This document shows, piece by piece, positions 39,992 to 44,627 of a stretch of 64,000 bases of DNA (position 1 is the first letter of the stretch; every line of letters starts with the position of its first letter). The stretch comes from an uncultured Candidatus Saccharibacteria bacterium (GTDB lineage Bacteria; Patescibacteriota; Saccharimonadia; Saccharimonadales; Saccharimonadaceae), in NCBI GenBank assembly GCA_938039975.1, contig CALHTM010000002.1:44541-108540 (forward strand). Direction: 5' to 3'. Below the pieces are notes generated by a model that did no database searches, had not been told where the DNA came from, and was given only the letters and a program-made list of their open reading frames with translations. A program made the position numbers and the translations under genes.

Positions 39992-40165
39992 CTATTGGCA
40001 GCCCTCGCACATAGTTAGTGTTGCCGGATCAATTGGCGCTGATGGTACACCGTCAGCTTCAGCTTTTTGATCGGCTTCAGCTTGCGCTTTGGCTATTTCG
40101 CGATCAATTGCCTCGAGTTTTTCCTCGAGCGTCATGTCGTCGTTAATTATCGCTGATGGATTCAT
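39992..40165 (-). CDS. 57-aa acidic peptide ending in CEGCQ; putative stand-alone NrdA redox tail
   Basis: MNPSAIINDDMTLEEKLEAIDREIAKAQAEADQKAEADGVPSAPIDPATLTMCEGCQ; SD AAGGGGG; TTGAAT-N16-TATAAT promoter at 40190-40217. Confidence 0.8.
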   Translation of the reverse strand: MNPSAIINDDMTLEEKLEAIDREIAKAQAEADQKAEADGVPSAPIDPATLTMCEGCQ

Positions 40166-40229
40166 TATTTCCCCCTTTTGCTTATATTCATTATAGGCTA
40201 ATAAACTGCTTATTCAATTACTAAAACTA

Positions 40230-41228
40230 CTACTTTACAGTGTTAACTTCATAATTAGTATTGGTGCTTTCAAAGAAATTGACTAATTCAAGCGTATCGT
40301 TGGCCGCCGCCATCCACTTGGCTGGATTAGGTACGTTGTATTCTTTCTCGAAGCCTAATTCTTCTAAACGGCGGTCGGTCATAAACTTGACATACTGGTT
40401 CACATAATCCGCATTCAAGCCCAAGATACCCTTTGGCAGCATGTCTTTGTTGTAAGCCTCTTCAAGCGCTACCGCCTGCAAAATTAGATCGCGAATCTCG
40501 TCAGCGAATTCTTGCGTCTGCAAATCTGGATTCTCGTCAAGAATTGTCAACAGCAAGTTAATGCCGAAAGTTAAATGCAGATTTTCGTCCTTAGTAATCC
40601 AATCTAGCAAACTGCCAACATTACGCAGCAAATTACGCCGGCGAAAACTCATGCCAACCATAAAACCGCTATAAAACCAAATGCCTTCGAGTACAATATT
40701 ATAAGCCACCAGATTACGCACAAAATCTTTCTTGCCCTCGGTAGTAGTAACGTCCAGCTTATCATTCAACATGCGGCCGACATACTTAGTCTGGAAGTCA
40801 GACTTATCTTTCAAGCTTTTCTTGCCATAGCCGGCTGCATAAATTTCTTGGCGGTCAAACGGAAACGTTTCAATAATGTATTCAAAGGTCATAAAGTGGT
40901 TAGCTTCTTCCCACATCTGTTTCGATAAATACAAGTGCGCCTCGGCGGCATTGACGTATGGATAAATACCAAAAGCTAACGACTTATTAATAAGCAATTC
41001 GTTTGGGTTCAGATAACTGATTACCGTTTTCAGCGCATGTTTTTCGTCGTCGGTCAGCTTCTCGAACGCCGCCAAATCTTGCACTAGTTGTACTTCATTC
41101 GGGAACCAAGTGTTAGCAACTGCCTGATTATACAAATCCATCGCCCATTGGTAGCGTACTGGCTTGAGTTGCAAGCCGTCGCGCAGGCCTGATCCCAAAA
41201 TACCTTGCGGTTGTGTTGTTTGCGTCAT
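40230..41228 (-). CDS. nrdB: ribonucleotide reductase beta subunit, class Ic-like
   Basis: NTWFP, EEANH, LEGIWFYSGF, DENLH, NFFE....Y. Confidence 0.95.
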   Translation of the reverse strand: MTQTTQPQGILGSGLRDGLQLKPVRYQWAMDLYNQAVANTWFPNEVQLVQDLAAFEKLTDDEKHALKTVISYLNPNELLINKSLAFGIYPYVNAAEAHLYLSKQMWEEANHFMTFEYIIETFPFDRQEIYAAGYGKKSLKDKSDFQTKYVGRMLNDKLDVTTTEGKKDFVRNLVAYNIVLEGIWFYSGFMVGMSFRRRNLLRNVGSLLDWITKDENLHLTFGINLLLTILDENPDLQTQEFADEIRDLILQAVALEEAYNKDMLPKGILGLNADYVNQYVKFMTDRRLEELGFEKEYNVPNPAKWMAAANDTLELVNFFESTNTNYEVNTVK

Positions 41229-41261
41229 ATTTCCTCCTTATTATTGTGATTTTAGCAACGT

Positions 41262-43670
41262 TTATGATCGTTTGCGTCGAGCAAAGCCGAAACCGCTTAC
41301 CCTTTTCGCGCTGTCGGTACGAACTTTTTGTACCGATTGCGATGTGACGGTGGTTTGCTCGGATTGATGGCGCGGCTTGACATGCAGATAATATGTCGTT
41401 TTCAAACCGCGGCGCCATGCTTCTGAATAGATTTCGATATATTCATCAATATCGCGTGATTCTAGGTACATATTGCGGCTAATCGCCTGGTCAACCCATT
41501 TTTGCGCTCGCGCCGCCACCTCGATAAAAGCGTACGGGCTCAGCTGAAAACTAGTTTTGTAGACGTCGCGGACTGCCTGCGGAATTTGCTCGAAACCTTG
41601 AATATCGCCCTGATTCGCCAACAAGTCGTCTTTGAGCGATTCCCACAGATTAAGTTGTTTGAGTTTACGCACCAAATTAGCATTAACCTCTAGGAATTTG
41701 CCGTTGAGCGTACTGCGGCTAAAGATTTGGCTAAATTGCGGGTCAAGTCCCGGCGTCGTACCTGCCACATGCGAGATATTAGCTGTCGGCGCGATCGCCA
41801 TCAAAGTTGCGTTACGCATACCTTTTTTGACTTTTTGGCGCAGCGCTTCCCAATCCAAGCGCGATTTACTATCAATTTTTACCTTAACGCCGCGCTCTGT
41901 TGTAAGTTTATCAACGGTATCGATAGGCAGTAAGCCCTTGCTCCAACCGCTGCCAGCAAAGTTCGGATAGCTGCCGCGCTCAGCTGCGAGGTTAGCCGAT
42001 TCATCAATGGCATGGTAGCTGATAAATTCAGTTAACTGGTCAACCAGATCGTAGGCAGCCTCGCTTTCGTAACTAATCTCTAGCTTCTCCAAAACATCCG
42101 ATAACCCCATATAGCCGAGCCCCAGCGCCCGATTATGCTCATTACTATACATAGCTTCGGTAACTGGCGTTTTCGTGATATCAATCAAGTTATCCAACTG
42201 GCGCGTGGCGGAGCGCACTGATACCGCCAAACAATCCCAATCCCAAGTCTTATCAGCGTTGAGAAAAGCCGACAAATTCATACTAACCAGATTACAGGTC
42301 GCAATATTATTTTCGTCCTCGGGCAAAGTTATTTCGGTGCACAAATTACTGAGGTGGATTGTCCCGGTGTTATTGTTGAGCGCCCGCAAATTGATGGCAT
42401 CCTTCCAGGTTAACCAAGGGTGTCCAGTCGCTTGTAGACTACTGAGAATCTGGCGGAATTGTTGGCGGGCTGGCACGACTTCGAAGCGGTTAATTTTACC
42501 GGCTTCTGCTAGTTTGATGTATTCCTGGTAGCGGCGACTGAACGCTTCACCGTATAGTTCATTTAAGTCGCTAACTTCAGCTGGATCAAACAGATACCAA
42601 TCCTGCCCGTCTTGCACGCGCTTCATAAACTCATCCGAAATAAACACCGCTGTATCTAGAAATCGCGTCCGCAAGTACGGATCGCCTGAATTCTGGCGCA
42701 AATCAAGGAATTGCGGAAAATTAAGATGCCAGTTCTCCATATACGCCGCTGCTGCACCCGCTTTCTTACCCTTACGCGATACTGCAAACAGCGCCGTATC
42801 AATCATTTTCATGAACGGAATCGGACCAGTTGACTCGGTATTGGTGGTTTTGACAGGACTGCCGGCGGCTCGCAGCTTATTCATACTAATACCGATACCG
42901 CCAGTACCTTTAGCGATGAACATAGTGTCGCGAATACTTTTGGCTATCGAAGCCATGTCGTCTTGAACCTCCATGACAAAACAGTTGCTTAGCTGCGGAA
43001 ACGAACCGCCAGCGTTAACCCGCGTACTGCCGCCCGGACTATATTCCAGATTAGCCATGTGGCGGTAAAATTTTATCGCCGCCTCGGTCGGATTGACTTC
43101 GTTAAAACTCAAACCCATAGCAATACGCATGTTAGTGAATTGCGGCACCTCGATCGGATCGCCGCTTTGGCGCCGCAGCGCGTAACGATTGCGGTTGGTA
43201 ACTACGCCGAGATATTTGCTAAGTGAATCCTTGCTCGGATCAAGCGCCGCCGCCAGCTTTTTGAGGTTAAATAGCTGCGAATCAGCCATTCGCTTATCTA
43301 GTAGACCCTCTTTAGCGGCTTGGCGAATATAGATAGGGAACTTTTGCGCGTGTAGCTTTTTAAGCTCGATTTCGTTAGTATAATCGCCGAGCACTTGCTG
43401 GTAGATAGTTCGCAGCAGCAATCGCGCCGCAATTGTGTCAAAGTCCGGGTCGTCTTTGACATTTTGAACTGCCGTCTGGATAAGCGCTTCATCAAGTTGC
43501 TCGGTAGTAATGCCGTCAAACAGCGTCAACTGCAATTCGGCCGCTATTTGCGCTACCTTCGCAATTTGATTTGGCAAACCTTCGCTAGCTGCCAGCAGAG
43601 TTAAATTAATTTTGTTAGCGTCAAACGGCTGCTGGCTACCGTCGCGCTTCACAACTGTAATATCTGCCAT
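41262..43670 (-). CDS. nrdA: ribonucleotide reductase alpha subunit with ATP-cone, no C-terminal Cys
   Basis: VVKRDG ATP-cone, LSNCF, SNLCTEI, ATCNL, IAPTA, KTTYYL. Confidence 0.97.
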   Translation of the reverse strand: MADITVVKRDGSQQPFDANKINLTLLAASEGLPNQIAKVAQIAAELQLTLFDGITTEQLDEALIQTAVQNVKDDPDFDTIAARLLLRTIYQQVLGDYTNEIELKKLHAQKFPIYIRQAAKEGLLDKRMADSQLFNLKKLAAALDPSKDSLSKYLGVVTNRNRYALRRQSGDPIEVPQFTNMRIAMGLSFNEVNPTEAAIKFYRHMANLEYSPGGSTRVNAGGSFPQLSNCFVMEVQDDMASIAKSIRDTMFIAKGTGGIGISMNKLRAAGSPVKTTNTESTGPIPFMKMIDTALFAVSRKGKKAGAAAAYMENWHLNFPQFLDLRQNSGDPYLRTRFLDTAVFISDEFMKRVQDGQDWYLFDPAEVSDLNELYGEAFSRRYQEYIKLAEAGKINRFEVVPARQQFRQILSSLQATGHPWLTWKDAINLRALNNNTGTIHLSNLCTEITLPEDENNIATCNLVSMNLSAFLNADKTWDWDCLAVSVRSATRQLDNLIDITKTPVTEAMYSNEHNRALGLGYMGLSDVLEKLEISYESEAAYDLVDQLTEFISYHAIDESANLAAERGSYPNFAGSGWSKGLLPIDTVDKLTTERGVKVKIDSKSRLDWEALRQKVKKGMRNATLMAIAPTANISHVAGTTPGLDPQFSQIFSRSTLNGKFLEVNANLVRKLKQLNLWESLKDDLLANQGDIQGFEQIPQAVRDVYKTSFQLSPYAFIEVAARAQKWVDQAISRNMYLESRDIDEYIEIYSEAWRRGLKTTYYLHVKPRHQSEQTTVTSQSVQKVRTDSAKRVSGFGFARRKRS

Positions 43671-43886: not shown

Positions 43887-44627
43887 ATGGAACCTATTAT
43901 TTCTATTACTCATTTTAAGATGCGTTTCGGCAAGACCGAAGTCATCAAAGACTTAAGTTTTGAGGTCAAACGCGGCGAAACATTTGGTTTTCTCGGCAGC
44001 AACGGCTCAGGCAAAACCACCACCATTCGCGCCCTACTCGGCATTTACCAGCCAACTGCTGGCGAACTGCTAGTCGGTGGCAAACCCTATTCGGTATCAA
44101 GCGGTATCAAACTGGGTTATCTACCCGAAGAGCGCGGCCTTTACAAAAAAGAGCCGGTTATCGACATCATGACTTATTTCGGCCAGCTCAAAGGCATGAG
44201 CCGCCTCGACGCTCGGCAAAAATCGCTTGATTTTTTGAAGCGCGTTGACCTGCTCGACAAAGCCAAAACTCGCCTCGATAAGCTCTCGGGTGGCCAGCAA
44301 CAAAAAGTCCAACTCGGTATCACAGTCATCGATAACCCAGAACTGCTAATCCTCGACGAGCCAACCAAAGGATTTGACCCGGTTAATCGCCGGCTACTGA
44401 TGGAAATCATCGAAGAACACCAGGCCAAAGGCGCCACTGTTATCATGATTACTCACCAGATGGAAGAAGTTGAGCGCCTATGCGACCGGATACTGCTACT
44501 CAAAGATGGGACGGCGCATGCTTACGGCACCGTCGCTAATGTTCGCAAGCAATTTGGCGGCAAGTCGCTCGATGATATTTTTGTTCAAGTCTACAGCCGC
44601 AACAACGAGGAGAAGCAACATGCATAA
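43887..44627 (+). CDS. ABC transporter ATP-binding protein (ABC-2 type)
   Basis: GSNGSGKTT, LSGGQ, ILDEP, H-loop. Confidence 0.95.
   Translation: MEPIISITHFKMRFGKTEVIKDLSFEVKRGETFGFLGSNGSGKTTTIRALLGIYQPTAGELLVGGKPYSVSSGIKLGYLPEERGLYKKEPVIDIMTYFGQLKGMSRLDARQKSLDFLKRVDLLDKAKTRLDKLSGGQQQKVQLGITVIDNPELLILDEPTKGFDPVNRRLLMEIIEEHQAKGATVIMITHQMEEVERLCDRILLLKDGTAHAYGTVANVRKQFGGKSLDDIFVQVYSRNNEEKQHA

Follow-up and report, generated by a model that had tools for sequence, protein, structure and literature searches.

A 64,000-nucleotide stretch of DNA from an uncultured Candidatus Saccharibacteria bacterium (contig CALHTM010000002.1 of assembly GCA_938039975.1, forward-strand positions 44,541 to 108,540; hereafter the window) encodes a class I ribonucleotide reductase (RNR) whose catalytic subunit, NrdA, has no C-terminal cysteine pair, and a separate 57-residue peptide that ends in a CxxC motif. 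Such a detached tail is a real variant of the class I enzyme, and one not described in the literature searched. Most likely, gene fission has turned the redox tail of NrdA into this separate small protein, which would re-reduce the active-site disulfide of NrdA in trans as a dithiol shuttle. In class I enzymes, turnover oxidizes an active-site cysteine pair, which is reduced by the cysteine pair on the tail of the α subunit; the tail in turn receives its electrons from thioredoxin (PMC11903788, in excerpt). A preliminary description of the window, made from the sequence alone, had proposed that the tail was now a separate polypeptide acting in trans. This central proposal was supported by the conservation of the peptide, its linkage to nrdA, its co-occurrence with Cys-less NrdA and its homology to fused tails.

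A class I NrdA without its redox tail

The RNR barrel of NrdA was recognized with high significance (PF02867, E 1e-162), together with one ATP cone, and the best NCBIfam model was the class I model PRK06539 (1275 bits, cut-off 988). The chain has four cysteines in total, namely C230 (SNCF), C444 (NLCTE), C459 (TCNL) and the non-conserved C480. No cysteine follows residue 480, and hence none lies behind KTTYYL with its Y760-Y761 pair; the sequence agrees here with the preliminary description, which had reported the SNCF, NLCTE, TCNL and YY motifs and the missing shuttle cysteines. C230, C444, C459, Y760 and Y761 were invariant in 43/43 aligned NrdAs. Among the features expected of a class I α subunit, the barrel with the thiyl cysteine, the redox cysteine pair, the YY dyad and an adjacent β gene were all present, while the canonical C-terminal cysteine pair on the same chain was absent. 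Every one of the 15 NrdAs listed from a 956-member cluster was 802 residues long.

The 57-residue peptide is encoded by a conserved gene

The peptide contains 13 D/E and 4 K/R residues and only two cysteines, C53 and C56, which lie in its C-terminal end (IDPATLTMCEGCQ). Its N-terminal part is likely helical. An identical peptide was present on 276 contigs, and 150 homologues were found at E≤1e-3, those with names being Saccharimonadales hypothetical proteins. The DP-x5-CxxC-Q/E motif terminated 113 of the 120 homologues among those listed, and it was present in all 33 of a diverse aligned set. Within this set K16, L17, I20, D46, P47, C53 and C56 were invariant, and L13 and A19 nearly so. The ratio of nonsynonymous to synonymous differences per site (pN/pS) among 28 distinct 57-codon genes revealed purifying selection, with values of 0.17 over the final 15 codons, 0.27 in codons 7-20 and 0.62 in the middle, at a pS of about 0.7, which is near saturation. 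Neither a chance open reading frame (ORF) nor an assembly error, which the preliminary description had considered as a way in which a Cys-bearing NrdA tail might be hidden, can account for the gene, because of the 276 contigs, the 802-residue NrdAs of the listed cluster members, the 150 homologues and the pN/pS pattern.

The peptide had no match in Pfam or NCBIfam at E≤1, matched only families of unknown function in PHROGs, and only clusters of 57-residue hypothetical proteins in the ESM Atlas. The lack of a redoxin-family match in Pfam and NCBIfam, together with the terminal position of the CxxC, bears out the earlier opinion that it is not NrdH or glutaredoxin. Of the 136 representatives newly listed by the profile search, 130 had at most 110 residues. 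No fusion of the whole peptide to NrdA or NrdB occurred among 7998 scored candidates, which yielded only three extended ORFs of 138-188 residues; this is weak evidence. The N-terminal segment was never found fused to an NrdA in the fused-form and profile searches.

Co-occurrence with Cys-less NrdA in Saccharimonadales

The peptide profile matched 10 of 251 Saccharimonadales genomes (one draw) at E≤1.2e-8, and an NrdA at 68-100% identity was found in exactly the same ten. All ten NrdAs were Cys-less at the C-terminus, with the peptide gene always within 1.5 kb. A match in G272 (E 0.005, positions 14-42, without the Cys part) was dropped as a partial chance match, and G276 was counted only in the denominator of 251. 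The preliminary description had suggested checking co-occurrence and linkage, and had held that an unconserved ORF, or one unlinked to such NrdAs, would speak against its proposal; the ORF was both conserved and linked. Among the other 241 genomes, 237 had another RNR match, and the 20 of these RNRs that were read comprised 18 class II-type enzymes with a Cys-rich tail and two other class I enzymes ending in CxxC.

Genomes of the same genus contained the peptide in 36/36 cases, and 27/27 nrdA ends read were Cys-less. The gene order was either nrdA-peptide-nrdB, with gaps of 8-175 nucleotides in mixed frames, or nrdA-nrdB-(x)-peptide, as in the window. A gene of 110-131 codons, not assigned to any family, sits between nrdB and the peptide gene in some of these genomes (L016, L024, L026-L030). 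In G019 (L017:10-1484), nrdA was broken into two ORFs, probably by a sequencing frameshift or a nonsense change. Most sampled Saccharimonadales have a class II-type RNR of about 930 residues, and the class I enzyme of the window type occurs in 10/251. The distribution of the latter suggests replacement in one family and sporadic transfer to others.

Homology to the fused tails of related NrdAs

The closest NrdAs outside the family, among 401 genomes of the phylum, were those of G515, G667 and G306, with 51-57% identity to the window NrdA. Like the window NrdA, they have KTTYYLH-x-K-x-RH-x-AEQST...GF, and then continue with a linker and P-V-D-P-x5-C-x-S-C-Q. When the 401 genomes were searched blind with the peptide profile, the only C-terminal matches beyond the family lay in those three tails (E 7e-5 to 4e-3). 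Twelve helix-only matches, and a second match in G098 to a Fur-like protein, were dropped as chance. The break between NrdA and the tail falls behind the GF motif (G793, F794), which is invariant in the tailed relatives too and there precedes the linker and DP-x5-CxxCQ.

The GTDB loci of 80 close NrdA relatives comprised 67 tailed and 13 Cys-less forms, a set that over-samples tailed forms because it was ranked against a tailed query. The [D/E]P-x5-CxxC-x end was found in 69/69 close tailed NrdAs versus 0/18 more distant tailed ones. When the last 14 residues of the peptide were scored against fused tails with the Cys columns removed, the mean was +18 for close and -13.6 for distant NrdAs. The comparisons confirmed the peptide as the missing redox tail of NrdA, as judged by its homology to the fused tails of the sister enzymes. 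In G403, a tailed NrdA of a distant clade, ending in GDPNLNICEDCQ, was accompanied by a 38-residue ORF after nrdB with a near-identical tail (L115:5011-5127). This case looks like an independent tail duplication and a possible intermediate toward fission.

The split in Microbacteriaceae and other branches

The detached-tail split is wider than the preliminary description supposed, and reaches the Microbacteriaceae. A small DP-x5-CxxC ORF lay directly behind nrdA at 11 of the 13 GTDB loci with a Cys-less NrdA, seven of them of the Actinomycetota type. We sampled 151 genomes from the family of a Microbacterium record. A window-type NrdA was present in 71, with one more cut by a contig end, and all 71 NrdA tails read had no cysteine. 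The tail motif followed by a stop was found in 72/72 genomes with a window-type NrdA and in 0/79 without. Each genome with the enzyme had 1-5 copies, and a reversed-pattern control gave 2 matches overall. The DNA pattern also permits TGG at the last codon, and at least one listed match (G755:C24:19163) was spurious; G755 has four others.

An adjacent tail ORF of 21-40 codons occurred in 66/71 Microbacteriaceae loci, most of these ORFs overlapping the nrdA stop in the manner of coupled translation, and the other five genomes had only a distant stand-alone copy. The distant copies fetched (n=20) were mostly short stand-alone ORFs. Some instead formed the C-terminus of an NrdH-like protein without its own CxxC, or of frames that we take, from their sequences, to be GNAT-like, PurC-like and cytidine-deaminase-like. 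The tail-fused frames (L330:662-958, L335, L228, L337 and L338) were seen only in genomes with a split NrdA. In three Microbacteriaceae, a 27-residue stand-alone tail gene lies upstream of one dehydratase-like/murB-like gene run (L224:1456-1539, L229:1456-1539 and L329). The Microbacteriaceae peptides have no counterpart of the N-terminal segment of the Saccharibacteria peptides, and the NrdA ends mostly have 2-3 K/R in the last 21 residues.

Elsewhere, a Cys-less NrdA without an adjacent ORF (L194, in G670) was accompanied by a 38-residue tail ORF at another place (L227:1089-1205). The NrdAs of L194 and L209 belong to a separate branch of Patescibacteria enzymes that otherwise have tails.

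Evolutionary history

Trees were built on the catalytic core of NrdA with the tail left out, using 107 rows (FastTree) and 32 chosen rows (IQ-TREE, LG+G4). The 22 split NrdAs (14 from Saccharibacteria, 7 of the Actinomycetota type and 1 from other Patescibacteria) and 5 tailed Actinomycetota enzymes formed one clade nested among tailed enzymes, with support of 100/97 for the split-containing clade in the IQ-TREE analysis. A single clade of split forms alone, as expected from a single origin, was rejected by the approximately unbiased test (p=0.0185, on the 32 chosen rows under LG+G4). Therefore, the tail was detached by several fissions, or by one fission followed by re-fusion.

Copies on phages and plasmids

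The peptide was encoded at 41 IMG/VR loci, none of which had nrdA or nrdB within up to 5 kb per side. An NrdH-like CxxC gene lay just downstream of the peptide at 15 of these loci, from two lineages; L070 and L071 had been removed from an initial 17 motif matches. The 57-residue form had no match in annotated GenBank phages. The short form was found in 6 phage and 19 plasmid records, the latter exclusively from Microbacteriaceae genera, and its genes were left unannotated, called hypothetical or mislabelled as 'ribonucleotide-diphosphate reductase subunit beta'. Two phage loci (L039:5168-5308 and L040:313-480) have a tandem of two tail peptides, one of the 55-residue Saccharibacteria type and one Actinomycetota-like (DPMDxLQCDSCQ).

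Proposed mechanism and alternative explanations

By established class I chemistry, every reduction of a ribonucleoside diphosphate would leave C230-C459 oxidized. The peptide, presumably expressed as a free protein, would insert its DP-x5-CxxCQ end into the active site like a fused tail, take the disulfide onto C53/C56 and depart. A thioredoxin or NrdH-like redoxin of the genome, with thioredoxin reductase, would then re-reduce the peptide and so complete the flow of electrons. Thioredoxin-like, thioredoxin reductase-like and NrdH-like genes were recognized by motif in the window genome, where the enzyme is the single class I/II RNR. The N-terminal segment, with its invariant K16, L17 and I20, probably forms a helix and would increase the local concentration by binding NrdA, a redoxin or itself.

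Several points weigh against the trans-acting shuttle. The proposal rests on sequence comparison. A class III NrdD is also encoded in the window genome, so that the class I enzyme may be dispensable under some conditions. Losing the tether should cost effective concentration. The co-occurrence counts are not independent because kin share gene content, and the tree implies only about 2-4 changes of state. Finally, one 0.7-Mb genome of unstated completeness (G671, L209) has a Cys-less NrdA and no copy of the motif under two patterns.

A special case of the shuttle, with the same chemistry, would have the peptide bind stably to NrdA as a third, stoichiometric subunit, its acidic helix docked on the basic end of the larger chain. 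We consider this form doubtful. The peptide is acidic, the last 21 residues of NrdA, with 8 K/R in the window, had a net charge of +2 to +7 in 32/32 Saccharibacteria NrdAs read, and complementary tails assemble a split phage NrdA (PMC3045599, in excerpt). However, what is invariant in the N-terminal part of the peptide is a lysine and hydrophobic residues, not acids, and tailed relatives share the invariant GF motif close to the end of NrdA. Because the 21-40-residue Microbacteriaceae peptides have no such segment and their NrdA ends mostly have 2-3 K/R, acidic-on-basic docking, as the preliminary description had pictured it, cannot be general; within Saccharibacteria it is possible and not supported. 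The same description was right to call the peptide a separate trans-acting polypeptide, but 'third subunit' may overstate the case, since a diffusible shuttle better explains copies that are dispersed, carried by phages or fused to enzymes.

It is improbable that the tail-derived peptide now regulates the enzyme or binds a metal, as a Zn/Fe CxxC site or a competitive active-site plug, while NrdH, thioredoxin or a small thiol reduces NrdA directly. Metal binding is conceivable for a CxxC at the end of an acidic peptide, small dithiols such as dithiothreitol can reduce RNR active sites directly (PMC4520616, PMC5704485, both in excerpt), phage and plasmid copies exist away from nrdAB, and a 1:1 subunit would not need multiple copies per genome or fusions to unrelated enzymes. 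Such a role would nevertheless leave the buried active-site disulfide without a known physiological reductant. Nor would it account for the full DP-x5-CxxCQ spacing of a fused tail being maintained under purifying selection, or for the absence of the motif from all 79 Microbacteriaceae genomes without a window-type NrdA; and the position of the peptide directly before the NrdH-like gene at the 15 phage loci is that expected of an electron relay.

It is scarcely credible that recoding, by stop read-through or a -1 frameshift, re-fuses the tail to give an ordinary tailed enzyme: although 57/65 Microbacteriaceae junctions were out of frame, mostly -1, and 8/65 were in frame with a single stop, recoding is impossible in the window, where nrdB separates nrdA from the peptide gene. 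The junctions overlap by ATGA/GTGA or TAATG/TGATG in the ordinary manner of coupled translation and have purine-rich SD-like (Shine-Dalgarno-like) codons, an in-frame slippery heptamer occurred in 1/66 with all three stop codons in use, and five genomes hold only a distant copy.

For the trans-acting shuttle, a broader reading joins these observations, and it is an even call whether it is correct. The tail would be a modular dithiol micro-shuttle that diffuses freely and inserts a new step between redoxin and enzyme. Fission would have produced it at least twice, or a single time with re-fusion, within a single NrdA clade common to Saccharibacteria and Actinomycetota. Amplification would have given several genes per genome, with copies joined to the ends of unrelated enzymes (PurC-like, cytidine-deaminase-like, GNAT-like and NrdH-like) and others carried on phages and plasmids without an RNR gene as a 60-170-bp auxiliary gene tuning the host supply of deoxyribonucleoside triphosphates.

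Organization of the locus and the β subunit

On the minus strand the order is nrdA, nrdB, the 57-codon ORF and a gene that we take from its sequence to be CTP-synthase-like. nrdB begins 33 nucleotides after nrdA, and the peptide ORF begins 64 nucleotides after the nrdB stop. The ORF coordinates, translations, 64-nucleotide gap and charge counts (13 acidic/4 basic; 8 K/R) of the preliminary description all checked out. It had also given the ORF its own promoter and SD sequence. Both the TTGAAT-N16-TATAAT site and the SD-like run exist, but the promoter candidate scores 10/12 and such sites in the region (6) were no more numerous than expected by shuffling (6.5), so that a promoter of the peptide's own is not established. 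The features are collected in Table 1.

Table 1. Features of the detached-tail RNR locus in the window
Feature	Coordinates	Strand	Remarks
nrdA, class I RNR α subunit, 802 residues	41262..43670	-	ATP cone; C230/C444/C459; Y760-Y761; without C-terminal Cys pair
Cys-less C-terminal stub of NrdA, KTTYYL to stop	41265..41402	-	ends right behind the R/K-x-GFGF motif
nrdB, β subunit, 332 residues	40230..41228	-	class Ic-like by sequence (E77, F115)
Detached redox-tail peptide gene, 57 residues	39992..40165	-	homologues, conservation, exact copies on 276 contigs
Peptide residues 44-57 (P-x-DP-x5-CxxC-Q)	39995..40036	-	homologous to fused tails of closest tailed NrdAs
Candidate sigma-70 promoter TTGAAT-N16-TATAAT	40190..40217	-	at chance level for the region
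SD-like AAGGGGG, G-rich	40171..40177	-	5 nucleotides upstream of the peptide ATG (sequence)

NrdB is a ferritin-like β subunit (PF00268, E 9e-71). Its nearest solved relative was PDB 1syy (E 3e-71), which we take to be C. trachomatis R2c, and E77/F115 align with E89/F127 of that protein. Glu at the first ligand (E89) and Phe at the position of the radical Tyr (F127) are the class Ic signature. NrdB is therefore class Ic (Mn/Fe)-like, the Mn(IV)/Fe(III) cofactor itself being predicted only. NrdB carries Trp in place of Y222 of R2c, a residue conserved among R2c proteins (PMC4118035). A class Ic-like β subunit fits the NrdAz/NrdAq groups (PMC9669993, in excerpt); our trees contained no reference NrdAz sequences.

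Relation to known systems

The tail cysteine pair of the E. coli class I α subunit is C754/C759. In B. subtilis NrdE it is C695/C698 (PMC11903788), and the class I tail consensus is CXXC (PMC9669993). The peptide resembles these tails in ending in CxxC-Q, and its fused counterparts sit behind a flexible linker; it differs in being a gene of its own, here even downstream of nrdB, with a new N-terminal segment.

NrdH-redoxin and glutaredoxin are likewise separate CxxC proteins that feed electrons to class I RNR, and Facklamia ignava reportedly has a Grx-NrdB fusion (PMC6187632). They have a thioredoxin fold and an internal CxxC and act on the tail, whereas the peptide has no redoxin-family match, has a terminal CxxC and would be the tail itself.

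A phage, presumably Aeh1, makes its class I NrdA as two polypeptides, NrdA-a and NrdA-b. In that case a homing-endonuclease insertion (mobE) fragments the catalytic part and assembly tails are needed (PMC3045599), whereas the window NrdA keeps a complete barrel and has lost only its redox tail to a separate gene.

The closest precedent for a detached tail, by analogy, is the split class II enzyme of Pseudomonas aeruginosa, in which NrdJb mediates thiol-disulfide exchange for NrdJa (PMC4520616); in class II enzymes with a Cys-rich domain, electrons pass between subunits (PMC5704485). The Pseudomonas enzyme and that of the window both pair a catalytic chain without C-terminal cysteines with a second gene product that acts, or in the window would act, in trans. 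However, NrdJa/NrdJb is B12-dependent and of independent origin, NrdJb is a folded IscU-like and zinc-finger protein (PMC9669993, PMC5704485) and not a 21-77-residue CxxC peptide, and dispersed or phage-borne NrdJb copies were not found in the literature searched, which was available in excerpts. The window system is not itself such an enzyme: NrdJ models scored below cut-off, the best family was class I PRK06539, and the peptide has only two cysteines.

Family-wide RNR analyses (bioRxiv 10.1101/2022.04.23.489257; PMC9669993) give, in their accessible portions, the CXXC consensus for class I tails and split forms for class II only. A detached class I tail was not found in a literature search that left most subscription papers and supplements outside. 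The preliminary description knew of no described example, which holds for class I in the literature searched, but it overlooked the class II precedent of NrdJa/NrdJb.

Implications

Of the two halves of class I RNR turnover, re-reduction is the less well understood, since the tail is both tethered and disordered. A separate tail peptide that can be titrated would allow direct measurement of tail binding, of the handoff between tail and redoxin, and of half-site asymmetry, and the system is accessible in culturable Microbacteriaceae. The split would show that the tether of the RNR tail is dispensable, and it would account for class I NrdAs that appear catalytically incomplete. It also exposes a family of genes of 21-77 codons that had been left unannotated, called hypothetical or mislabelled as an RNR β subunit. 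On phages, the tail gene may rank among the smallest auxiliary metabolic genes.

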